Shown one piece after another: positions 5,990 to 64,000 of a DNA stretch of 64,000 nucleotides. Source of the stretch: Mobula hypostoma (taxonomy: Eukaryota); the NCBI RefSeq assembly GCF_963921235.1, contig NC_086108.1, positions 58,158,001 to 58,222,000 of the forward strand. The letters run 5' to 3'. Numbering within the stretch: position 1 is the first letter of the stretch; every line of letters begins with the position of its first letter. Under the pieces are notes generated by a model. The model was not told the origin of the DNA and searched no databases. It saw nothing but the letters and a program-made list of their open reading frames with translations. The position numbers and the translations under genes are program-made.

Positions 5990-8900
5990 TGCAGATACTG
6001 CATAGCTCCACAGTTCCTCCACAGCTTCCAATTTTATGGTGCCCTGTCCTTGTATTGCCTCATTCTACTTTTCCCAAGATCAACAAAGTGGACTGTCCCA
6101 GCAGATAAATTGATTCAGCCTGCTGTCACCAAACCAAACTCACTTCTTCCTACCTTTACTCCATCTTTTCTTCCCTGCTCCTGTCCTTTTCCACTAACAT
6201 CCATAACACTTTGGATGCTGTTAATGGTTCTCGTTTTCCTGCTCTCAATCAGTCCATCCTCTCCGTAGAAGATGGAAATGTTGGTGGAGGGCAACTTGGT
6301 CTTTTACCAGATCCTCCAAATCTCTATCCCACATCAGGAGCAAAGGCCCCACAAGTTCTCCTCCTCCAACACGCTCATTCGTCTGGTTGCATGTGTCCTC
6401 ACCTTAAACAATTTCTGCAACTAACCTTGAGTAATACACAGAAAATGCTAGAGAATCTCAGCAAGTCAGGCAGCATCTATGGAGGGAAGTTTACAGATGA
6501 GACTCTTCTTCAGGACTGGAAAGGAAGGGAGCAGAAGCCAGAATAAGAAAATAAGAGAGGAAGCAGTAGAAACTAGTAGGTGATAGGTGAGATCAAATGA
6601 GGGGGAAGGTGGATTGGTGAAGGACAGAGAATGAAGCTGCAAGCTGGGAGGGGATATGTGGAAAAGATAAAGGGCTGAAGAAGGAATCTGATAGAAAAAT
6701 ATGGTGCAATAAAGGAAGGAGGTCAAGAATCAGAGGGAGAGAATGGACAGATCATGAGTGCAGGGGAGGTAAAGAGAAGGAATGAGAGTGTAACCAGAGT
6801 GGGTGAGAAACAAAAGGAGGGGGGCATTAAAGATAAGGGCAGTGGTTACTAGAAGTTAGATAAAACAGTGTTCATGCAATGCGGTTGGAGACATCCCAGA
6901 CCGAATATGAGGAGCTGCTCCTCTAATCTGCATTTGGTCTCATAATGGAGGTAGAGGAGACCTTGTACAGACATGTTGGTGTGGGAATGGGAAGTCAAGT
7001 TGAAGTGGACAGTCACCAGGAAGTTTTGCCCTCAAGACTAATCAATAAGCTCCAAGATCTAAGCCTCAAAACCTCCCTGTGCAATTACCGTCAGCACAGG
7101 TGCACCACAAGGCTGTGTGCTTATCCCCCCGCTCTACCCACTTTATATTTATGACTGTGAGGCTAAGTACAGCTCCACTGCCATGTTTAAGGTTGCTGAC
7201 AATACCATTGCTGTTGGCTGAATCAAAGGAGGTGACGAATCAGCGTATACGTAGGAGGGAGATTGAAAATCAGGCTCAATGTTGCCACAGCAACATCCTG
7301 TCACTCTACATCAGCAAAACCAAAGAGCTGATTATTGACTACAGGAGGAGGAAAGCAGGGGTCCATGAGACTGTCCTCATCTGGGAAACAGAGGTGAAGA
7401 GAGTTAGCAACTTTAAAGTTCCTTGGCATTATCATTTCAGAGGATCTATCCAGCACGTAAGTGCCATTACAAAGAAGGCACTTCAGCACCTGTACTTTCT
7501 TAGAAGTTTGCAAAGATTCAGCATGTCATCAAAAATTTTGACTTACTTCTATAAATCTGCAGTGGAAAGTACACTGGAAGCATCTATTCCCTTGAACGGA
7601 AAAACCTACAAAAAGTGGTAGATACAACCCAGTCCATGACAGGTAAAGCCCTCCCCAGCACTGATTAGATCTATCAGGAGTGCTGTTGTAGGAAAGAGGG
7701 ACCCATCGTCAAGGATCCCCACCATCCAGCCTTTGCTCTCTTCTTGCTGCTGCTATCAGGAAGGAGGTACAGAAGCCTTAAGTCCAACACTGCCAGGTTC
7801 AGGAATAGTTACCATGTTCTTGAGCCCGAGTGGATAACTTCACTCACCCCAACACTGAAATGATTCCACAATCTATGAGTACACTTTCAAGGACTCTACA
7901 ACCCATGTTTTCAATGTCTACTATTGATTTCTTTATTATTATTATTATTTTGTGTTTTATTTTCTTGTTGGTATTTGCACAGTTTGTTGTCTTTTGCACA
8001 CTGGTTGTTTGTCCATCTTTGCTGTGTGCAGTTTTTCATTGTTTTTATTGTGGTTCTTTGTGTTTACTCTGAATGCCCACAGGAAAACAAATCTCAGGGT
8101 TGGATATGGTGACATATATGGATTTTGACAATGCATTTACTTTCAATTTGTCATATGCAGTGGACAGAATAAAGGTGCTTGACAAAGCGATCCCCCAATC
8201 TGCATAGGGTCTCACTAGTGTAGTGAAGGTCAGATGCAATAAATGAGCCCGAAAGACTCACAGGGGAAGCACTACCTCACTTGGAAGGATAGTTTAAGGC
8301 CCTGAATGGTGGTAAGGGAAGAGATATGGGGGCAGATGTAGCACTTTTACTCTCCCACCTTATTATAGCTTCTCTCCCCTTCCTTTCCAGTCCTGTTGAA
8401 GGGTCTCAACCCTAAATATCAACTGCTTATTTCTCTCCGTAAATGCTGTCTGACTTGCCAAGTTCCTCCAGCATTTTGTGTGGGTGTGTTTCTCCTCCAA
8501 ATCCACTCACTTTCTCCAGATCAAGAATGTAACAATAGCCCTTACATAGGCCCAAGCTGAACCTGTCCTGAGTCACTCCTCCAATGCTTTCCCAGGTACA
8601 AAAACAACTGCTTGCTGCACTCATGCAAAGCTTGAAAATTTCATCACTTCACAGTCAACTCTGTCGTGAACTTAATTCTGATTCATTCATTCTGTTTTTG
8701 GATCTCCCTGTTACTATCTCAGGGGCTAGGCTAGCCACAATCATCCATCGTAAGCCCACAGATTCCCATAAATATCTTGATTATTATTCCTCCGACCCTA
8801 CCTTCTGTATGGATTCTTGGTCCCCCTGTCTCCATTGTATTTGCTTCAAAGACAAAATATTCCACAGAAACATTCCTTAATCATGAGTTCCTCTCTGCTA

Positions 8901-13726: not shown

Positions 13727-13842
13727 CAGCCCTGATGAAAGGTTTTGGCCTGAAACATCGACTGTTTATTATTTTCTACAGACGCTGCCTGATTTTGTGT
13801 GTGTTGCTCTGGATTTCCAGCATCTGTGGAACCTCTTGTGTT
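13727..13842 (+). mobile_element. Short PLE terminal-repeat insertion carrying a hammerhead motif
   Basis: CTGATGA (13732-13738) ... GAAAC (13752-13756); TSD-like tacaaatagtatgc (13713-13726) / tacaatatgtatgc (13843-13856). Confidence 0.7.
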
Positions 13843-14197
13843 TACAATATGTATGCTTTTCCTTTTATTGCTAGCATTAAGTTGGTGTAATTGAAAGTTC
13901 AGTGTGTAAGCAGAGTTGGCATGTGTAGAAATGAAAAAAAGAGTGCATGCTGAGCCTTACCCATCTCACAGCATGTACTGTCACTATTTCAATCACTGCT
14001 TTCAAATGCAACTGCACCGCATTAATTTACTGAAGCTCAGCTGTAGTTTACTAAACTTCCTGCTTTATCACCCTGGAAAGCTAGTGCGTAGATGGCATTA
14101 ATCAGCATTTGAATGTCTGTGCATGAACAATTTAACACTTAAAATTCTTAAAGCCTCAGTAGTCCCAGTTCCTGACATGTTGCAGGTTATATTTATT

Positions 14198-14565: not shown

Positions 14566-16111
14566 ATTACAATGTTTTTCTAATTTTTACCATGCTCAGT
14601 CCATGTGTAAGCCTGAATGTTAAATGTCAACCAGTTTTAAAAAAGGATCTATTGCTTTCCCGGTGTATATGACAAATAAACCATTCTTGGGCTTCTAGCC
14701 GGGTAGAGGTATCAATTATAAACAGCATTTCAATGACAGACTCTGCCTTCTTCATAAGGGATGATGCCTGGGCATGTCTAGTCCAGTGGTATTTATACCC
14801 CCTTAGTCTGTCCCTCCTGATTGGCTAGTCCTTATCCAATCAGGTTTCCGCTCTCCCACCTTGTTTACAATCGAATTCCAGTTCTTTCTTTGAGTGAGAC
14901 CTTTGCTTCCGTTAAAATTCTTTTCCTCCAGTTTTATTTCAATGGTTTCCTTCACAAAGCGATCCCTAAAGCCATTGGCACAGCACAGTAGTTTTGTGCC
15001 ATCAAAGTTAACCTATGGCCATTGTGAATGCAATGTCTGCTATCGCCACTTTCCCCAGGCAACCAAAACGGATACACCTCCTGTGCTTCGTGATGGGGTT
15101 TCCACCGTGTGTCCCTTCTGCTCGATATCCAAACAAAGGGCAGCCCTGCCATCATTGACAATCCTTTTAGGGTACATCGATCAAACTGGGCAATCCATCG
15201 ACAAGGCAACCAGATCGGTCCTCGCCAAGGGGCTAAATTTGGCTCCAATCCCTAGAGCTATACCTTATTGGGACCACATTGGCCTGGTAGAGCAATCAGT
15301 CCGAAAGCTACCACGGAATACCGCGGAGGAGGTAGGGATGGAGGTCTGCATGGCCCTCAAAAGAGCTGTTTTGCCGAAACCGAACGTTACAAAAGGAGAG
15401 CGACTGACCCTCCAGGCACTACGGCGAAACCCAACCATCATGATTTTACCAGCTGACAAAGGAAATGCAACATTCCTGATGTCCTCTGAGGAATACCACT
15501 GGAAAGTCCAACAGATTCTGGACGATCCTGCCTACAGAGTTCTACAGTGGGATCCCACGGATTCGATTATGAGGCTGACCTCCACTTTACTGAAAAAATC
15601 CAGACTGCCAGCAGATATATGCAAGACACTTCAGCCTCAGGTGTCAAGTTCACCAAGACTTTACAGGCTTCATTAAAACATTATCCAACATCCAGCTGAA
15701 CACTGAAGACTTAATCTTTAGTTTCAACGTGGTGGCCCTGTTCGCAGGTGTTCCTATTAAGAACAGCTTGGGCATCCTGTGGTCAAGGTTTGCTAAGGGT
15801 ACCATTGACCTTTTTGAACCCACCCATACATCGATGTACTTCCCCAACAAGGGGAACTACAAAGAAAAAATGGACAGAGTGGCCATGGGATCACCCTTGT
15901 CATTGGTTATTGCTAATTTCTCCAGGGAGTACTTTGAGATGAGGGCTATATATATATATATAGTTCATCACCTTACACCCCAAATGCTTCTTCAGATACG
16001 CCATCGTAGTGTTGCCTCATGGACTCCCTGTACTCCAACAGTTCCACTTCCATCTGAACAGCATACATCCAAACATTCAATTTACAATAGAGATGGAGAA
16101 GCACGATTGTC

Positions 16112-17534
16112 ATTTTCAATCTCTCACTGCATGAGTGGAACTCCCTACTTGCTTCAAAAAGGCAACAATTGTGCCAGCGCCTAAGAAGAATAATGTGAGC
16201 TGCCTCGAAGACTATCACCCGATAGCACTCACATCTACAGTGATGAAATGCTTTGAGAGGATGGTCATGACTAGACTGAACTCCTGCCTCACCACAATAG
16301 GTCAACGGCAAATGCAATCTCAGTGGCTCCTCACAGGGCCTCAGACCACCTGGACAATACAAACACCTATGTCAGGATGCTGTGCATCGACTATAGCTCA
16401 GCATTTAACACCAACATTTCCACAATCCTGATTGAGAAGTTACAGAACTTGGGCCTCTGTACCTCCCTCTGCAATTGGATCCTCAACTTGCTATCCGGAA
16501 GACCACAATCTGTGGAGATTGGTGATAATATATCCTCCTCGCAGATGATCAACACTGGTGCACCTCAGGGGTGTGTGCTTAGCCCATTGCTCTACTCTCT
16601 CTATACCCATGATTGTGTGGCTAGGCATGGCTCAAATACCATGTATAAATTTGCTGATGTTAGAACCATTGTTGGTAGAATCTCAGATGGAGACGAGAGG
16701 GCATACAGGAGCGAGATATACCAATCAGTGGAGTGGTGCTGCAGCAACAACCTTGCACTCAACGTCAGTAAGACAAAAGAGCTGACTGTAGACTTCAAGA
16801 AGGGAAAGATGAAGGAACACATACCAATCTTCATAGAGGGATCAGAAGTGGAGAGAGTGAGCTGTTCAAAGTTCCTGGGTGTCAGATCTCTGAGGACCTA
16901 ACCTGGTCCCAGCATATTGATGCAGCTATAAATAAGGCAAGATGGTGACTATACTTGATTAGTAGTTTGAAGAAATTTGGTATGTCAACAAATACACTCA
17001 AAAACTTCTATAGATGTACTGTGGAGAGCATTCTGACAGGCTGCATCACTGTCTGGTATGGAGGGGCTACTGCACAGGACCGAAAGAAGCTGCAGAGGGT
17101 CGTAAATTTAGGCAGTTCCAACTTGGGTACAAAATACCCAGGACACCTTCAAGGAGCGGTGTCTCAGAAAGACGGCGGCCATTATTAAGGACCCCCAGCA
17201 CCCAGGGCATACCCTTTTCTCACTGTTGCCATCAGGTAGGAGGTACAGAAGCCTGAAGGCACACACTCTGCAATTCAGGAACAGCTTCTTCCCCTCTGCC
17301 ATCCGATTCCTAAATGGACATTGAACCCATGAACACTACCTCACTTTTTTAATGTATATTATTTCTGGTTTTGCACAATTTTTCAATATATGTATTCAAC
17401 ATACATTTACTGTAATTAGTTTACTTATTTATTTTTACTGTTTTCCTTCAATATTATGTATTGCATTGAACTGTTGCTTCTAAGTTAACAAATTCTACGA
17501 CACCTGCTGGTGATAATAAACCTGATTCTGATTC
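16112..17534 (+). mobile_element. Rex1/Babar-type LINE 3' part inserted in the Penelope RT
   Basis: [32 protein letters not shown]; tail AATAAA-cctgattctgattct; the host frame EMEKHDC|PFLDVL rejoins across it. Confidence 0.92.
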
Positions 17535-18345: not shown

Positions 18346-18959
18346 CAGGATCCTATAGAAGTACCAGATTAATACCATCCACAAACCTGTAAGGAATCTT
18401 ATGCAGGTCAAGGATGACCTTGGACTCAGGACAACTAGCACTTACAGGATTCCCTGTGAATGCGGAGCACTATATATTGGCCAGGTCATCCCATGTTGGA
18501 AACCCGCATCAAGGAGTACGGGAGATGCATCTGTTTGGGTTACCCAGAGAAACCAGTGGTAGCAGAACATTGCATCTGTAATTGACTTTGATGGCACAAA
18601 ACAACTCTACCCTGTCAGTGGCTTTTGGGACCATCTGGTGAAGAAAGCCATTGAAATAGAACTAGAGGAAAAGAAATTTAACAAAGACCAAGGTCTCGCT
18701 CTAAGTAAGAACTGGAATTTGATTGTAAACAAGGTGGGAGAGTGGAAATCTGATTGGGTGAACACTAACCAATCAAGAGGGATGGACTATGGGATTATAA
18801 AACCAAAAGACTGGATGTGCCCAGGCATCAACCCTAATGAAGATGGCAGAGTTTGTCATCGAAACATCAGTTATAATTGATACGTGCCCGGCTGGAAGCC
18901 TAAGAAGAGTCTATTCATCAACTAGTTATTACTTAAACTTAAATTGGAAAATCACTATA

Positions 18960-24122: not shown

Positions 24123-24911
24123 GTAAAGTGGCTATCGTGTATTTAAGTTTATGTGAAGAAAAGTTAAACATAAAGTTGTAAATAAAACTCCTGAACATTT
24201 AGTCAATAAATTCACTGTCATGTCAGTTTGTTAGTATGGTAACTTTGTCATGACAGCAATAGTGTACTACAACTATCTTATCACCAAACCGGAAAGAGGA
24301 TAATGAATATATATTCTGTTGTTAATCGCTGGTAAGTTTTCCACTCATAAAGTGCATGCATGTCGGGCAAAAACAGCAACTGATATGATATGAGGGCAAT
24401 ATTGATAAATATCTAGGCTCAAATCAAAAGGTTGCCCCTGATATCAGAGAAAAACCAGTAACCATGAATGATATTTCACCATAAATGCTTAAAATGTTTT
24501 GGATAAAATTCAAGGTATGCAAATAAATGCAGAGTACAAATATCATACATTGAATTTCATATCCTATGGAACAGGATTAAGTGAGTAGAGGGAATTGGTT
24601 TTGGGTGGATGCACAATGAAATTATATTTAGAGTCCACAGAAACTTCAAGTTCAAACTATTCTGTCCTATCAAGAATATAGATGGTGCTTCATCTGCTGA
24701 ATGTTTGAAACTAAATCAAATCTGGAACCTTTATGATCAGAATTGCTCAATTCCATTTTGGACTGTGGACATATGACTGATGCATTACAAATGTTCATAA
24801 TTTCTCCTATGATAAATTAAAGCATATTGATATTGCCATATTTATACCAAAATTGTCTTAGTTGCTGTATTTACACTAACAACCATGTTTTTTTTTCACT
24901 CTTTAACTCAG

Positions 24912-25004
24912 TTTTGTGTGAGGATAGAGAAGAACCCCGGTCTTGGTTTCAGCATAAGTGGAGGAATAAGTGGACAAGGGAATCCATTCAAGCCATCTGA
25001 TATG
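24912..25004 (+). CDS. LRRC7: LRRC7 PDZ exon 1 ([31 protein letters not shown])
   Basis: GLGF loop; cag acceptor after a T-rich tract; ATG/gtaatc donor; 93 nt phase 0. Confidence 0.97.
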
Positions 25005-26451
25005 GTAATCTGAAAGAGAACAATCAAATGCAATTGCATTTTCCCAGATAACTTATAGGCTACAGTAACATTGCCCTACCCTCCATAGGTTGATGCCAGC
25101 TATCAAAGGATGAGCAGAAGTCAGCTACAGATGGTAAAGGGAAATGGTGTAAGTCAGCAAAGCTGGTACTTCATTAACAATAAACAGCATGCTTTTTAAT
25201 ACTCCACAAACTAGGAAAATTTTTTTTTACATTAATTATTTTTAGAATAATCCAGCCATAATTTCAAAACACCAAAAATCATCAATTAGGTGCTTTATTC
25301 CGATTCATTTTTTTAATATCTTGCCATCCATGCATATATCACAATTTGCTCCATGAAACCAGATAATATCATTAGTTCATCATTTTAATTTGATAGATAA
25401 TTTATTTTAAATGGGTTACTATTAACATTAAAATAATATCATAAAATCTAGTCAGAATGTACTATATAATGGAGCTTTGTGTTAATTGTATATGTTCACA
25501 AGTTAACATTTCAGTGGTAGTTAGTATTCTTATTCTTCTTATGGCTCATCTTCCTGGCATCATAAACTCCTGAGTCCTCTCCACCCTAGTTCCTCATTCC
25601 TCCTGCAAAGAAACTAACATTGTCACACTTTGATCTTTTCATCTGTTTATCATAGTTTAAATTATATCTTCAAGTACGTGAGAAGTTATGCATTCTTATG
25701 CTACCTAGAGCATCAATTCTTTACTTTATCACAAGCTCCATCTCCCATAAGAAACCACTTCCATTTTGGGCTTTCATTATTATTTAATTCTTTTTCTCCT
25801 TTCTTATTGAAAAAGGTTTCCTTACCATTATAAAATGGTAAGGGGAATAGGCAGAAATTATTGTGCTGCAAGTGGGATGGTCTCTGCAAAGATTGATGCA
25901 GAAATGAAAAAACTTTCTTTCTGTTGCCATCTTCTACAAACACTATGAGTTATATTACAGTTGTAACACAATAAGACATAGAACCACACATGAAACACAA
26001 TGTGCTTGTTTCAAAACTAGACAAATCTATCAAAACTATTATCCTTTAAAAATATCTATGAGCTAAGTAATATTCTACGTAATCCATTCCATTAAGCTGT
26101 CCCTTCATGCATTGCTTTACCATTAACTTATGAAAGTATCTCCAAATAATGTGGTTAGATTAACCATCTACTCTGGAAAGTAGATGCAGAATATTACTGC
26201 TGAACCAAATCATATTTGATTTGTCCATGGTTTATAACAAAACAATGTAAGGGACCAGACGGTAATCAAGGATATGGAACCTATTTGAAACTAACTTCCA
26301 TGTAGCATGACACAAAGAAAGAAAAATGTACAGAAGCTAACCCTAACCCTGATTGATCACAGCTCTGTTGAAGTCAACCACAATCAACTGGAACTATTTT
26401 TTTTGAATCTATGACGCTATGACTATCCTCAATCTAATCACTTAATTGTAA

Positions 26452-47326: not shown

Positions 47327-47639
47327 AACTCTAATCGGAGTTTTTGAGATGTCAGTTTATATCGTCATATCTGAGATTTAATTAAAATATGCAACTTCGT
47401 TAAAGAGAGAAATGTAACTATTTTTTAAAATGACATTTCTTGTTTAATGCGGCGGTAGTGAAAGGACACTCATGGCAGTTCAGTTGCACTTTATCTATTG
47501 TGTTTTAAATAGTTTAAACAAATATGCAGTGGATTGTAAGATGAATTAATTTTGCAACAGCACCCATCAACTTATGTAACTGCTTTTGTAAATTTTTAAC
47601 CTTTGAGTTATCGAAGTACTAAAATCACAACTATTCTTT

Positions 47640-48382
47640 CCTCGCCACTAATCTCCCTCTTGGCACCTATCCCTGGAAGCGGAAGAAGTGCTACAACTGC
47701 CCGTTCACCTCCTCCCTCACCTCCATTCAAGGCCCAAAACAGTCCTTTCAGGTGAGGCAACAATTCACTTGCCAATCTACTTTATCTGGTGTTCTTGATG
47801 TGGCCTCCTCTGCATTGGTGAGACCTGACATAGACTGTGAGACCATTTTGCCGAGCGCCTTCGTGAAAAGCTGGACTTCCTGCTAGCCATTTTACTTCCA
47901 ATTGCCATTCCCATTCTGACATTTTGGTTCATGTCCCCTTCTACTGTCACAATCAGGTTGGAGGAGCAACACCTCATATTGTGTGGGTAGCCTGGCATGA
48001 ACATAAATTTCTGTAACTTCCAGTAATTTTTCCCCCTCTGCTTTCCCTCCCCACTTACCTCTTCTCCTCACCTGTCTATCACTTCCCCCAGTACCTCTCC
48101 ACCTTCCCCTTTTCCCAGGTCCACTCTCCTCTGCTATGTGATTCCTTCTTTTCTAGGCCTTTACCTTTTCCACCTATCACCTCCCAGCTTCTTACTTCAT
48201 TCCCCCTCCCCCCTCACCTGCCAGTTTGTATACCTTCTGTTCCCCCCACCTTCCATTTCTGGTGTCTTCCCCCCTTCCTCTCCAGTCCTGATGAAGGGCC
48301 TCAAACTGAAACGTTGACTGTTTATTCATTTCCATAGATGCTGCCTGACCTGCTAAATTCCTCCAGCATTTTGTGATTTGCA
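47640..48382 (+). mobile_element. PLE family A 3' end (GIY-YIG remnant, pyrimidine tract, hammerhead-bearing terminus)
   Basis: C..CPFT and GLLCIGET remnants at ~47690-47825; terminus tagatgctgcctgacctgctaaattcctccagcattttgtg. Confidence 0.85.
48283..48320 (+). ncRNA. Minimal type I hammerhead ribozyme motif (stem II degenerate)
   Basis: cagtc CTGATGA agggcctcaaact GAAAC GTT gactg; perfect 5-bp stem I. Confidence 0.6.
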
Positions 48383-48959
48383 CTAATGGACCAATTTTTT
48401 TTAACTGCAATAATCTAGAACTACTTTATTAAAAGAACATGATTTCACTCAAATATTTATATTTATGCATGGCTTTCTCACACAGGCCCTCATTTTCTTT
48501 GGAAGGTCATGTTAACTATTTACTAAATCTAATATGAACGCAATGTTTTAAACCGTAAATGTGAATTTCCTTCTTCATTCTAGTTTGCATTCTTCATTTC
48601 GGCAAGTAGTTATTTTATTAATGTGCCAAAGCACTTGTAGCCTGAGTGCCTGGACAAATAGGAGAAAAACTGGGGGTTGGGTTAAAATTATTTGTCCAAG
48701 AATAAAATGCAGTAGTTCTTCTTCACAACATTGCTTGGTGTGCAATATTGCCTTCTGTAGATGAAGCTTCAAAATTCACTATGGTGAAGGGAATTATCTG
48801 CATTGTATCATCTTAGTCAATGGATCTGGGAAAATCTAGGGCACCCAAGACTATTCAGGCCATCAAGTGCCAAGTCAAAAAAAAACTTTCCAGCAATTAT
48901 TGTGTTGCCATGCAGGTAATGGCTATACAAGTACATATTTGTATACTGCTAAAATTTGT

Positions 48960-53110: not shown

Positions 53111-53284
<174 letters not shown>

Positions 53285-54270: not shown

Positions 54271-54483
<213 letters not shown>

Positions 54484-55266: not shown

Positions 55267-55344
55267 CTGTTAAATGAAAGGATTACAGTTTGTAATTGTT
55301 GTAGCTTTTTCATTTCCATTGGTAATGAAGTCAAAATGTTATTT
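55267..55344 (-). CDS. LRRC40: LRRC40 exon (NNILTSLPMEMKKLQQLQTVILSFNR)
   Basis: aag acceptor, AG/gtcagt donor, 78 nt phase 2-2; LRR pattern. Confidence 0.95.
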
Positions 55345-56119: not shown

Positions 56120-56230
56120 CTAAGATCCAGATGTATCAAGTGCTCCAGTGTGCAAAGCTCCAAGGAAATAGAATCAAGCTTGTTGAAACCAAGATTTACA
56201 TCAGTCACCGTGACTTTAAGTTCTGCAATC
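56120..56230 (-). CDS. LRRC40: LRRC40 exon (IAELKVTVTDVNLGFNKLDSISLELCTLEHLIHLDLR)
   Basis: ttttatacag acceptor, AG/gtaggt donor, 111 nt phase 2-2; the gene presumably continues beyond the window. Confidence 0.95.
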
Positions 56231-56640
56231 CTGTATAAAAATACTAATGTTACTGGCATCATCTTGGTGTCTTTATCATATAACACTAGTTAAACATTCC
56301 AATTTAATTTTTGTTCTAATGAATGGAAACTTTTAAAATCATTCTCACCCACCAAATACAACTGTAAACCACAGATATATGCCCAGTGTTTTGACCCAAC
56401 AATTTAAGCAGTTTCCTTTACAGTATTATCAAAGCAACTAACAAGAAATATCCTTTACTTTCTTTTTATTAAAACAGAAACCCAACTATTTATACACATT
56501 TTCAACAATAACTAGGACTTTGGAAAATAGGAATTAAAATTAAATTGATGCAGAGCATTCTACCATCAATGTATTTAAAGATAAAACTGGTGTCCAGAAT
56601 TACTATTGATCCTAACTTTAAAAATAATGACCATGTTACC

Positions 56641-56840
56641 ACAAGAGATTCTGCAGATGCTGGAAATCCAGGGTAACACACAGAAAACACTAGATGAACT
56701 CAGCAGGTCAGGTAGCATCTACAGAGAGGAATGCACAGTTGACATTTTGGGCTGAAACTCATCATCTTGGCCCAAAACGTCAACTGTTATTCCTCTCCAT
56801 AGATACTGTCTGACCTGCTAAGTTCATTCAACATTTTGTG
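56641..56840. mobile_element. Fold-back mini-element made of inverted PLE termini
   Basis: Arms ~56678-56752 and 56768-56840 are reverse complements; flanking aatgacca at 56626 and 56841. Confidence 0.8.
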
Positions 56841-57096
56841 AATGACCACATCATGCAGGAAAGTGGCAAAGCTAAGCACCAGTGGCTGCGGGGCCTACTT
56901 CTGTTTCTATTTCAGATGTTCATTAGTTGTTGTCTTGAATACAATGTCTAATAATGAATTCAAAAGCAATAGCTTAAAAAAGATTTAATGATGATGTCAT
57001 TTCAGTGGTGTTGCTAACTTTCATATTAGGCTGATCATTTTTAATCTTTCAGATTAACCTGCATGTGATCTCAAATCTCAGGAACAACTTTACTAA

Positions 57097-57383
57097 CAAG
57101 AGAAAATTTCCAGATACCATATCATCAACAAAAGATAATCTGCAGATGCTGGAAATCTGAGCAACACACACAAAATGCTGAAGGAACTCAGCAGGCCAGG
57201 CAGCATCTATGGAAAAAAAGTACAGTCGACGTTTTATGCCGAAACCCTACAGCAAAAGTACAGTTGGTGTTTTGAGCTGAAAGCCTTCAGCAGGACAAAG
57301 GGTTTTGACCCAAAGCATCAACTGCACATTTTTCCATAGATGCTGCTTCGCTTCCACAGTTCCTCCAGCATTTTATGCATGTT
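57097..57383. mobile_element. Fold-back mini-element of PLE termini with an internal tandem duplication
   Basis: Perfect 15-bp flanking direct repeat gaacaactttactaa (57082-57096, 57384-57398); inverted arms. Confidence 0.82.
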
Positions 57384-57815
57384 GAACAACTTTACTAAGA
57401 CTTTTTCCCTCTTCTTTCCCTTTAAAAACATAGAGTGTACATAAGAAAGTACAAGTCATCTGGCCCCTTGATCATTCAATAAGGCTATGTCTGAACTGAT
57501 TTTAGTCTCAGCCTCACTTTCCTGAATGTTCCCCTTTACCCTTGATTCCCCTTGTAGATGAAAGATCTTTTAATTTCCAGCCTCAAGTAGATTGAGTTCA
57601 CCATGCTACCCTTACTAAATTTCCACAGTTCTCTAGACTGGAGAATTCCAGAGAGTCAGCACGCTCTGGAAGAAAAAAAAATTCATCATCTCCAGCTTAA
57701 GTAGAAGTCCCTTATTCCAAAACTACCTCAAGTTCTAAGGTAACCCACTAGAAGAAACACCCTCTCAGCATATATGCTATTAAACTTCTCTAAACCAGGA
57801 ACCAAGATTTCTAAC

Positions 57816-58133
57816 AACAGGAATTCTGCAGATGCTGGAAATTCAAGCAACACACATCAAAGTTGCTGGTGAACACAGCAGGCCAGGCAGCATCTCTAGG
57901 AAGAGGTGCAGTTGGTGTTTCAGGCCGAGACCCTTCCTCAGGACTAACTGAAGGAAGAGTGAGTAAGGGATTTGAAAGTTGGGGTCTCCCCCTCCCCCTC
58001 CAACTTTCAAATCCCTTACTCACTCTTCCTTCAGTTAGTCCTGATGAAGGGTCTCAGCCTGAAACGTCGACTGCACCTCTTCCTAGAGATGCTGCCTGGC
58101 CTGCTGCGTTCACTAGCAACTTTGATGTGTGTT
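57816..58133. mobile_element. Young fold-back mini-element of PLE termini (~134-bp inverted arms)
   Basis: Arms 57849-57982 and 58000-58133 nearly perfectly complementary; 15-bp TSD accaagatttctaac (57801-57815) / accaagatctctaac (58134-58148). Confidence 0.9.
58036..58073 (+). ncRNA. Minimal type I hammerhead ribozyme motif with an intact core
   Basis: tagtc CTGATGA agg-gtctcag-cct GAAAC GTC gactg; stem I agtc/gact, stem II agg/cct, predicted cut after C58068. Confidence 0.8.
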
Positions 58134-58182
58134 ACCAAGATCTCTAACCTATCTCCTTAAATAAAGAACATGCCTAAGCCAT

Positions 58183-60028: not shown

Positions 60029-62539
60029 TATAGAAACATAGAAACATAGAAAATAGGTGCAGGAGTAGGCCATTCGGCCCTTCGAGCCTGCACCGCCATT
60101 TATTATGATCATGGCTGATCATCCAACTCAGAACCCAGCCTTCCCTCCATACCCCCTGACCCCTGTAGCCACAAGGGCCATATCTAACTTCCTTTTAAAC
60201 ATAGCTAATGAACTGGCCTCAACAGTTTGCTGTGGCAGAGAATTCCACAGATTCACCACTCTCTGTGTGAAGAAGTTTTTCCTAACCTTGGTCCTAAAAG
60301 GCTTCCCCTCTATCCTCAAACTGTGACCCCTCGTTCTAGACCTCCCCAACATCGGGAACAATCTTCCTGCATCTAGCCTGTCCAATCCCTTTAGGATCTT
60401 ATACGTTTCAATCAGATCCCCCCTCAATCTTCTAAATTCCAACGAGTACAAGCCCAGTTCATCCAGTCTTTCTTCATATGAAAGACCTGCCATCCCAGGA
60501 ATCAATCTGGTGAACCTTCTTTGTACTCCCTCTATGGCAAAGATGTCTTTCCTCAGATTAGGGGACCAAAACTGCACACAATACTCCAGGTGTGGTCTCA
60601 CCAAGGCCTTGTACAACTGCAGTAGTACCTCCCTGCTCCTGTACTCGAATCCTCTCGCTATAAATGCCAGCATACTGTTCGCCTTTTTCACCGCCTGCTG
60701 TACCTGCATGCCCACTTTCAATGACTGGTGTATAATGACACCCAGGTCTCGTTGCACCTCCCCTTTTCCTAATCGGCCACCATTCAGATAATAATCTGTT
60801 TTCCTATTTTTGCCACCAAAGTGGATAACTTCACATTTATCCACATTAAATTGCATCTGCCATGAGTTTGCCCACTCACCCAACCTATCCAAGTCACCCT
60901 GCATCCTCTTAGCATCCTCCTCACTGCTAACACTGCCACCCAGCTTCGTGTCATCCGCAAACTTGGAGATGCTGCATTTAATTCCCTCATCCAAGTCATT
61001 AATATATATTGTAAACAACTGGGGTCCCAGCACTGAGCCTTGCGGTACCCCACTAGTCACCGCCTGCCATTCTGAAAAGGTCCCGTTTATTCCCACTCTT
61101 TGCTTCCTGTCTGCTAACCAATTCTCCACCCACACCAATACCTTACCCCCAATACCGTGTGCTTTAAGTTTGCACACTAATCTCCTATGTGGGACCTTGT
61201 CAAAAGCCTTTTGAAAATCCAAATATACCACATCCACTGGTTCTCCCCTATCCACTCTACTAGTTACATCCTCAAAAAATTCTATGAGATTCGTCAGACA
61301 TGATTTTCCTTTCACAAATCCATGCTGACTTTGTCCGATCATTTCACCGCTTTCCAAATGTGCTGTTATCACATCCTTGATAACTGACTCCAGCAGTTTC
61401 CCCACCACCGACGTTAGGCTAACCGGCCTATAATTCCCCGGTTTCTCGCTCCCTCCTTTTTTAAAAAGTGGGGTTACATTAGCCACCCTCCAATCCTCAG
61501 GAACTAGTCCAGAATCTAACGAGTTTTGAAAAATTATCACTAATGCATCCACTATTTCTTGGGCCACTTCCTTAAGCACTCTGGGATGCAGACCATCTGG
61601 CCCTGGGGATTTATCTGCCTTCAATCCCTTCAATTTACCTAACACCACTTCCCTACTAACATGTATTTCGCTCAGTTCCTCCATCTCACTGGACCCTCTG
61701 TCCCTTACTATTTCTGGAAGATTATTTATGTCCTCCTTAGTGAAGACAGAACCAAAGTAATTATTCAATTGGTCTGCCATGTCCTTGCTCCCCATAATCA
61801 ATTCACCTGTTTCTGTTTGCAGGGGACCTACATTTGTCTTTATCAGTCTTTTCCTTTTTACATATCTATAAAAGCTTTTACAGTCCGTTTTTATGTTCTC
61901 TGCCAGTTTTCTCTCATAATCTTTTTTCCCCTTCCTAATTAAGCCCTTTGTCCTCCTCTGCTGAACTCTGAATTTCTCCCAGTCCTCAGGTGAGCCACTT
62001 TCTCTGGCTAATTTGTATGCTACTTCTTTGGAATTGATACTATCCCTAATTTCTCTTGTCAGCCACGGGTGCACTACCTTCCTTGATTTATTCTTTTGCC
62101 AAACTGGGATGAACAATTGTTGTAGTTCATCCATGCAACCTTTAAATGCCTGCCATTGCATATCCACCGTCAATCCTTGAAGTGTCATTTGCCAGTCTAT
62201 CTTAGCTAATTCATGTCTCATACCTTCAAAGTTACCCCTCTTTAAGTTCAGAACCTTTGTTTCTGAATTAACTACGTCACTCTCCATGTTAATGAAGAAT
62301 TCCACCATATTATGGTCACTCTTACCCAAGGGGCCTCTCACGACAAGATCGCTAATTAACCCTTCCTCATTGCTCAAAACCCAGTCCAGAATAGCCTGCT
62401 CTCTAGTCGGTTCCTCGACATGTTGGTTCAAAAAACCATCCCGCATACATTCCAAGAAATCCTCTTCCTCAGCACCTTTACCAATTTGGTTCACCCAGTC
62501 TACATGTAGATTGAAGTCACCCATTATAACTGCTGTTCC
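60029..62539 (-). mobile_element. Young 5'-truncated CR1 LINE
   Basis: Uninterrupted ORF2 from the endonuclease GDFN motif to the stop; short 3' UTR with a hairpin and (TTCTATGT)n tail at 60029-60052. Confidence 0.96.
60128..62538 (-). CDS. CR1 ORF2 (partial AP-endonuclease plus complete reverse transcriptase); N-terminally truncated
   Basis: GDFN, LDWVL, SDH, NYRPVSLTS, YLDFQKAFD, QGSVLGP, FADD; the first ~28 aa of the 831-aa track ORF come from flanking DNA. Confidence 0.9.
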
Positions 62540-62559
62540 TGAAGACAAATATAAAATTT

Positions 62560-64000
62560 GATTGGAAGGTGACACAAGCAGAGATGACAACTTTACAGTA
62601 ATGGCTAGAGTTTCTGGGAGCAATATGGAAGGTGCAAGATAGATACATCCCGAAGTAGTAGTGGTATTCTAAAGGCAAGATAATACAACTGTAGCTAACA
62701 AGAGAAGTCAAAGACAACATAAAAGCAAGAGAGTGCATAGAGCAAAAATTAGTGGGAAGTTAGAGGATCGGGAAGCTTTTAAAAACTAACAAAAAGGCAA
62801 CTAAAAAAGCCAGTTTTTTTTTTAGGTATATAAAGAGTAAAAGAGGGATGAGAGTAGATATCGGACCGTTGGAAAATTTCACTGGAGAGGTAGTAATGGG
62901 GGACAAGGAAATGACAGATGAACTAAATATGTCTTCACTGTGAAAGACACCAGCAGTATGCTAGAAGTTCAATAGCGTCAGAAGGCAGATGTAAGTGCAG
63001 TTGTTATTACTATGGAGAAGGTGCCTGAGAAGCTGAAAGGTCCAAAGGTAGATAAGTCACCTGGACCAGATAGACTACACCCCACGGTTCTGAAAGAAGT
63101 ACTGAAGAGATTGTGGAGGCATTAGTAATGATATTTCAAGTATCAATAGATTCTGGAATGGTTCTAGGGGACTGGAAAATTGCAAATGTCACCCCACTCT
63201 TCAAGGAGGGAGGGAGGCAGAAGAAAGGATATTACAGGCCATTTAGCCTGATCTCAGTGCATGGCAAGATGTTGGAGTCCATTATTAATGTTGAGGTTTT
63301 GGGGTACTTGGAAGCACATAATTTTTTTTTAAAGGCTTAAGTCAGCATGGCTTCCTTAAGGGAAAATCTTGCTTGACAAATCTGTTGGAATTCCTTAAAG
63401 AAATAACAAGCAGCATAGACAAAGGATAGAGGATTGGCTGATTGGCAGGAGGCAAAGAGTGGCAATAAAGGGAACCTTTTCTGGTTGGCTGCCAGTGACT
63501 AATGGTATTCCGCAGGGATCAGTGTTGGGACCGCTTCTTTTCATATTATACATCAATGATTTTGATGACGGAATTGATGGCTTTGTGGCCAAGTTTGAGG
63601 ATGAAAGGTGCAGGAGCAGGTAGTGTTGAGGAAACAGGGAGGGTGCCAAAGGCCTTAGACAGATTAGGAGAATGGGCAAAGAAATGGCAGATGGAATACA
63701 GTGTCAGGAAGTGTATGATCATGCACTTTGGCAGAAGAAATAAAAGCATAGACTATTTTCTAAACAGGGAGAGAGAACATACAAAAATCAGAGGTGCAAA
63801 GGGACTTGGGAGTCCTTGTGCAGGATCCTTTAAAGGTTAACTTACAAGTTGAGTCAGTGGTGAGGAAGGAAAGTGCAATGTTAGCACTCATTTCGTGAGG
63901 ACTAGAATATGAAAACAAGGATGTAATGCTGAGGCTTTATAAGACACTGGTGAGTATAATGAGCAGTTCTGGGCCCCTTATTTAAGAAAGGATTTGCTGA
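62560..64000 (+). mobile_element. Decayed CR1 ORF2 running off the window end
   Basis: [32 protein letters not shown]; frameshifts and stops. Confidence 0.88.

Follow-up and report, generated by a model that had tools for sequence, protein, structure and literature searches.

Three short inserts lie close together in one intron of the 64,000-nucleotide stretch of DNA analysed here (the window), each folded back on itself and each bearing the hammerhead-containing end of a Penelope-like element (PLE). They raise the question of whether such inserts form a mobile family in their own right or are left behind by ordinary PLE insertion, and whether this intron is a hotspot for it; the original prediction had allowed either a retrozyme/MITE-like family or a recurrent product of abortive PLE insertion. 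We conclude that each very probably arose by a separate insertion of an abundant Neptune-type PLE and is no longer active, and that two-primer synthesis and joining is the likely origin of the miniature head-to-head form.

An inverted-repeat search confirmed inserts with inverted arms at 56640-56840 (E1, 201 bp), 57097-57383 (E2, 287 bp) and 57816-58133 (E3, 318 bp); the three elements of 200-320 bp, each with its own direct repeat, are thus present as predicted. All three consist of two head-to-head, 5'-truncated copies of the hammerhead-bearing PLE terminus inside a single target-site duplication (TSD), and in all three only one copy carries a tail (35 nt in E1, 36 nt in E2, 33 nt in E3), the inverted arm being tail-less. 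The two arms are identical at 57 of 71 aligned bases in E1 (80%), 66 of 85 in E2 (78%) and 127 of 134 in E3 (95%). In an alignment, the tail-less ends of E1-E3 and of five single copies (about seven in the window) fall within ~6 nt of one point.

From left to right, E1 comprises a decayed 14-bp TSD (56626-56639), a minus-strand long arm (56640-56763, with its tail at 56640-56674) that is 5'-truncated within the hammerhead core, a plus-strand tail-less arm (56764-56840) that begins in hammerhead stem II, and the right TSD (56841-56854), located by direct-repeat comparison. Its left end, 56640, is a main loose-end point of the PLE family in all four runs compared. E2 is the most complex: between TSDs of 15 bp (57082-57096 and 57384-57398) stand a degenerate tail-like lead of 30 bp (57097-57126, minus strand, 18/23 identical to the E2 tail), a minus-strand long arm (57127-57256, tail at 57127-57162) truncated inside the hammerhead core, a short tandem re-copy of the hammerhead region (57257-57296, minus strand, 38-40 bp, 31/39 identical to the long arm) and, as delimited by alignment to the long arm, the inverted tail-less arm (57298-57383, plus strand). 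We infer that the tail-like lead possibly records a first, aborted priming. In E3, TSDs of 15 bp (57801-57815 and 58134-58148) enclose a minus-strand long arm (57816-57981, tail at 57816-57848), whose hammerhead cleavage triplet is mutated, and a plus-strand tail-less arm (57982-58133). The predicted plan of a full terminus followed by a shorter inverted copy therefore stands as regards the inverted pairs, but the long arms of E1 and E2 are truncated inside the hammerhead core, and the inverted arm of E3, although it has no tail, outreaches the long arm by ~17 nt on the 5' side.

The direct repeats match at 15/15 positions in E2 and 14/15 in E3, and in neither case did any of 2000 random boundary pairs do as well. 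For E1 the match is 10/13 with three transitions, equalled by 11 of 2000 random pairs, and is best read as a decayed 14-mer (10/14, all four mismatches being transitions), which makes the TSDs 14-15 bp in E1, E2 and E3 alike. The lengths originally given (8 or more, 15 and 15 bp) hold for E2 and E3, whereas the 8 bp of E1 gives way to this decayed 14-mer.

A profile built from 10 copies in the window yielded 13 arms at nine loci, those 10 matching by construction. Two of the six loci other than E1-E3 run upstream into PLE protein remnants. The longer of these copies (47626-48377, plus strand) contains a Zn-finger linker and GIY-YIG remnant, a pyrimidine-rich stretch and the hammerhead terminus (48284-48386); by tblastn the protein P0003 maps to 47626-48023 (E = 2e-25), a short distance before this terminus. 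In the second (6432-7028, minus strand) a PLE C-terminal remnant lies upstream of the same terminus, with phmmer matches down to E = 2.5e-9 and a tblastn match at 7028-6852 (E = 7e-15). For a 53-aa piece of it (6852-7010), phmmer found 24 relatives at E ≤ 0.001, one of which, P0003, combines a Zn-finger linker with a GIY-YIG domain (Pfam E = 0.002, below the cut-off). Pfam matches to GIY-YIG were found on two of seven relatives, both under the curated cut-off, and the Zn-finger linker is visible in P0003, in P0007 and at 47626-47778. The frameshifted remnant at 47778-48020 went unrecognised by Pfam and by a word-based protein search; 6852-7010 had no match in an Atlas search, although the full phmmer search did find its relatives. 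Because the terminus lies downstream of PLE protein remnants in two longer copies, it is the 3' end of an endonuclease-bearing (EN+) PLE, and the PLE origin proposed for E1-E3 is borne out. A CX2-5CxxC Zn-finger linker before a C-terminal GIY-YIG domain marks the Neptune and Nematis clades in the PLE scheme of PMC8557442; judged by its sequence, the family is an EN+ PLE with a linker of Neptune/Nematis type, from which the clade is provisionally assigned.

The family is very abundant in these fish. On a 3.2-kb stretch, contig pieces of at least 90% identity numbered 139,745, 90,535 and 64,424 in three DNA-like runs, almost all of them on repeats and with flank depths of ~5-13, such piece counts not being equal to copy number. 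A scan with the terminus pattern gave no locus in viral contigs and none in metagenomes; two loci found with a second metagenome pattern were rejected as chance matches in coding-like sequence that lack the other parts of the terminus. None of the six other loci in the window has a significant TSD, their boundaries being mostly rough. The best candidate is a single-arm tailed copy at 13727-13843 that starts 4 nt before the hammerhead core and has a 20-bp internal deletion; its possible 14-bp duplication (11/14; 219/2000) is not significant. Elsewhere an inverted piece of PLE linker and GIY-YIG (8346-8163, minus strand) abuts a plus-strand terminus that is followed by an RT piece, and the whole (8163-8483 and 8677-8865) is a larger rearranged insertion of the same PLE family in which no duplication was found.

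Little of the ribozyme survives intact. A full minimal hammerhead core was recognised by pattern in one of the seven fold-back arms, the short arm of E3, and in two of the six other copies. This sole full core among the arms (~58036-58073) is on the plus strand, antisense to the host gene, and none of the four arms on the host-sense strand has an intact core. Rfam gave no match at gathering score, and its 21 weak matches were to generic hairpins, none of them a hammerhead; E1-E3 hold no tandem of intact same-strand hammerheads, the cores of the E2 tandem re-copy being broken. The motifs are like the minimal type-I hammerheads of metazoan PLEs (PMC4209133) in their CUGANGA core, with one bulged base before stem II, and in the palindromic ACGU that replaces helix III. 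Such minimal motifs require a same-strand partner and cleave poorly, and pairs on opposite strands, 100-700 bp apart, have already been noted in the same account (PMC4209133). In contrast to the hammerheads described there, six of our seven arms have a broken or truncated core, and the intact core of E3 has no same-strand partner for dimer folding. Every arm of E1-E3 starts on the 5' side of the hammerhead cut site, which points to uncleaved RNA as the template and rules out a turn at that site; uncleaved RNA serves as template for the PLE protein PAc in the experiments of PMC11167929. In seven of the 13 arms (those listed include 56763, 57256, 57297, 13727 and 22814) the 5' end lies between about -4 and +16 of hammerhead C3, as if RT often stopped at the hammerhead structure, in what is a small sample.

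That E1-E3 are separate insertions, as originally proposed, is confirmed by their three different junctions, their own TSDs and the membership of E3 in another subfamily. In a by-eye alignment, with distances taken from hammerhead C3 (long arm/short arm), the junctions fall at about +1/+11 in E1, -3/+6 in E2 and -41/-57 in E3, and no second copy of any of them occurs within the window. Over the core, the two E3 arms agree with each other at 92%; their identity to the full arms of E1 and E2 is 61-72%. Arm identities of 80, 78 and 95% indicate different ages, E3 being the youngest. In E2 a perfect 15-bp TSD accompanies arms with 22% divergence, possibly a sign that two different RNA templates were copied.

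Sequence from other organisms bears on the age of the inserts. Organism B, 1.2-2.7% divergent from the window over three long pieces, has contigs that bridge the E1 junction (no difference in 113 letters, depth 13), the right end of E1 and both ends of E2, and contigs that reach only 23-25 letters into E3 and into the left end of E1 (the threshold being 31 letters). Organism C (4-6% different) bridges the left end of E2; its contig near E3 stops at 57789, with 66 letters unaligned. Organism E yielded nothing informative on these inserts. The bridged inserts are therefore old and at least partly common to species, and among the joints listed there is no empty allele. At 57985, 40 contigs of organism B depart from E3 and continue, without folding back, into ordinary upstream sequence ending in TTGGA, a motif that also stands at the end of the E3 long arm. 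The motif could provide a 4-5-nt inverted match where two cDNA ends pair, one or two bases being left unexplained; a short match was also looked for at the E1 and E2 junctions, and none could be shown.

Taking together the observed anatomy, TSDs, tail asymmetry, PLE link, differing junctions and ages and decayed ribozyme cores, we envisage the following course. A protein with RT and GIY-YIG domains would nick both strands of AT-rich DNA, 14-15 nt apart, and each nick would prime cDNA synthesis on uncleaved element RNA. Starting at the outer of two start sites would give the arm with the tail, and starting at the inner site the tail-less arm. Both cDNAs would terminate after 80-170 nt, near the structured hammerhead region, and their ends would be joined end to end, in E3 by way of the 4-5-nt inverted match, after which repair would leave a fold-back within one target duplication. 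Two-primer synthesis and joining is thus what we infer, with the order of steps borrowed from in vitro work on another PLE clade. L1 twin priming is similar in that cDNA synthesis begins on each of the two target strands and short matches join the products within a single TSD; there the second primer uses another region of the RNA as template, whereas here both arms derive from the same region, giving a hairpin. Several points count against our explanation: the turning points of E1 and E2 are no more than ~10 nt apart, no short match could be shown at either of these junctions, E2 combines its perfect TSD with diverged arms, the listed joints include no empty allele, the in vitro precedent is a Poseidon-clade element, and three fold-backs crowd into 658 bp while the six other loci all lack the miniature fold-back form, a distribution that is improbable per window.

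The same PLE origin could be kept and the second primer dispensed with if a single nucleic acid, perhaps an antisense template with a palindrome at the junction, primed itself by snapping back. Palindromes at head-to-head junctions of rotifer PLEs have been read in this way (PMC3846280), a short one exists at the E3 turn, and in E1 and E2 the tailed arm reaches further 5', which fits folding back of that cDNA. In E3, however, it is the tail-less arm that extends further 5', so snap-back of one cDNA cannot have made the tail, and the second arms end at the inner RT start point, which suggests priming there; we regard self-priming as quite unlikely. A self-propagating non-autonomous family (retrozyme-, SINE- or MITE-like), in which a hairpin acts as master and the PLE enzyme copies it in full, would account for the common size range, architecture and 14-15-bp TSDs of E1-E3 and for the closeness of the E1 and E2 turning points; PLE proteins can mobilise pLTR-bounded sequence in trans (PMC3846280), and animal retrozymes come from pLTRs (bioRxiv 10.64898/2026.07.22.740005). 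Against it, all three junctions differ and none is repeated in the window, a comparison of breakpoints that rests on three fold-backs in one window; tandem same-strand hammerheads are lacking and a full core is confined to a single arm; and the termini are asymmetric, unlike terminal inverted repeats. Among the contigs listed at the E3 turn, moreover, the continuation is ordinary upstream PLE sequence. Where a MITE or fold-back DNA transposon has symmetric terminal inverted repeats and a shared interior, these inserts have a one-sided tail and three interiors. We therefore consider a mobile family very unlikely, and the retrozyme/MITE-like alternative of the original prediction is not supported, given the differing junctions, the missing tandem hammerheads and the want of an intact core in any host-sense arm. 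Three differing junctions, the E3 subfamily, the ages of the arms and the decayed cores instead identify the inserts as by-products of insertion. That second alternative holds up, on tail asymmetry as well as on junctions and cores, in all but its adjective: the inserts are truncated, not abortive, each having been resolved with a target duplication.

The head-to-head pattern itself is already published, and E1-E3 are a tidy small example of it. The scheme in Fig. 2 of PMC8557442 places a 30-40-bp tail at one end of a PLE and an adjoining inverted, 5'-truncated copy, and head-to-head pLTRs within one duplication are described for the EN+ PLE Pen2a_Av of Adineta vaga (PMC3846280). Our inserts share with those of both accounts an inverted truncated copy joined to a direct one, a single TSD and a tail at one end only, as well as a partial tandem (E2) and a short junction palindrome (E3). 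They differ in having no ORF between the arms and a whole length of 200-320 bp, and their TSDs of 14-15 bp compare with 8-10 bp in the rotifer examples given (PMC3846280). Closest to the mechanism we favour is the in vitro work on PAc (Poseidon_Ac), a protein predicted to be a dimer, in which two RT start sites explain the tail and both target strands are nicked and extended (PMC11167929). Two start sites bounding the tail, an AC-rich start, AT-rich targets, extension on both strands and an uncleaved RNA template are common to PAc and our inserts; PAc, however, belongs to the Poseidon clade, unlike the Neptune/Nematis-type linker seen here, and no fold-back products are described for it (PMC11167929). 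Animal non-LTR retrozymes are likewise short, non-coding, pLTR-derived and of type-I hammerhead ancestry, but they are described as tandem units, arranged head to tail, with two or more complete hammerheads, where E1-E3 are head-to-head with at most one (bioRxiv 10.64898/2026.07.22.740005). The listings of a literature search drawn largely from open-access papers showed no account of miniature PLE fold-backs from cartilaginous fish. How PLE head-to-head inserts are made is a step still called undefined in the papers cited here. The value of such inserts is accordingly collective: a census of tail position, breakpoints, TSD length and empty sites could test head-to-head insertion of PLEs in vivo.

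Whether the intron segment is in addition a true PLE target hotspot, set by target sequence or chromatin, depends on how surprising the cluster is. With the inserts removed, the three target sites lie within 658 bp, and the 60 bp to the left of each are 63-70% AT, against 60% for the window. For the three fold-backs alone such closeness has P = 0.0003-0.0014 per window, uncorrected for more than 200 windows, whereas for any three of the nine loci P is 0.026 (taking 62 kb) to 0.10 (30 kb). Across 209 windows, a density of three fold-backs per window would yield 0.06-0.3 such clusters and a density of five to eight would yield 0.7-3.7, so the assumed density sets an expectation anywhere in 0.06-3.7. 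The cluster is thus a little out of the ordinary, but it does not establish a hotspot. The empty sites of E2 (57068-57096 joined to 57399-57410) and E3 (57787-57815 joined to 58149-58160) are alike over ~40 bp, with their TSDs almost in register; the score was equalled by 7 of 4940 pairs drawn at random and by 27 of 5000 shuffles, for what was one of six pairs tried, chosen post hoc and excluding E1. The likeness is absent from the wider flanks, where 933 of 1000 shuffles scored as well, and this flank comparison rules out a long ancient duplication spanning both sites. It may reflect target preference or chance, and is a weak lead. We hold a hotspot to be doubtful, the clustering being most likely fortuitous in so dense a family, with the age and AT-richness of the intron DNA contributing. 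A bolder version would have a PLE endonuclease with sequence preference and a fixed 14-15-nt stagger hit one segment three times, twice at look-alike 40-bp sites, the fold-backs recording a dimeric enzyme that primed on both target strands and seeding clusters of editable dsRNA in introns; as a whole this is unlikely.

The host is a minus-strand LRR gene. An LRRC40-like exon at 56120-56230 has AG and GT flanks, and further exons at ~55267-55343, 54272-54456 and 53114-53216 (all minus strand) are the last of the gene. The 3' splice site of the first of these is 410 nt downstream of E1 in the transcript, and no further exon was found from 56231 to the end of the window, so E1-E3 lie 0.4-1.9 kb upstream of a 3' splice site. 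The intron of an LRR gene is thereby confirmed; the name LRRC40, also used in the original prediction, is presumed from the protein and from its place beside LRRC7. The two genes converge tail to tail, with the PDZ exon of LRRC7 (densin) at 24891-25010 on the plus strand (E = 2e-16; region 24831-25010). In X9, a run presumed to be RNA, a 220-letter contig of depth 416 aligns to exon 56120-56230 with its first 113 letters only, and intron contigs have depths of ~5, a contrast that fits normal splicing.

Folded in the host sense, E1, E2 and E3 are predicted to reach -105, -131 and -264 kcal/mol (z = -13, -13 and -28), with longest unbroken helices of 19, 26 and 45 bp, and in a fold of the whole cluster each insert pairs with itself. 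The long hairpins expected in the host pre-mRNA are thus supported as a prediction. The strong predicted fold follows from the head-to-head geometry, and on this model the hairpins are a passive consequence of it: a G·U bias favouring host-sense pairing (20 vs 12, P = 0.22) is not significant and gives no hint of selection. Were such hairpins common in introns, these animals would have a large source of dsRNA in them. Also in X9, a 1250-letter contig of depth 867 (record 31) opens with 85 letters like the terminus (58047-58131); a copy of the PLE family may form the end of a well-covered transcript.

Other retroelements surround the inserts. LINE remnants are plentiful in the window, which is vertebrate DNA, and the same intron holds a young LINE with an uninterrupted 846-aa endonuclease-RT frame (60131-62668, minus strand; Pfam RVT_1, E = 9e-34). 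The spacer between E2 and E3 (57437-57790) resembles the antisense 3' end of a CR1-type LINE, a likeness that no search returned, and E3 stands just beyond it. A second family is represented by 226-bp inverted repeats (14675-14900, minus strand, and 18693-18915, plus strand) that are 80% alike, carry a different hammerhead-like motif and enclose RT remnants and a later LINE piece, with no clear duplication; the RT frames at 14894-16184 (plus strand) are presumably PLE-like.
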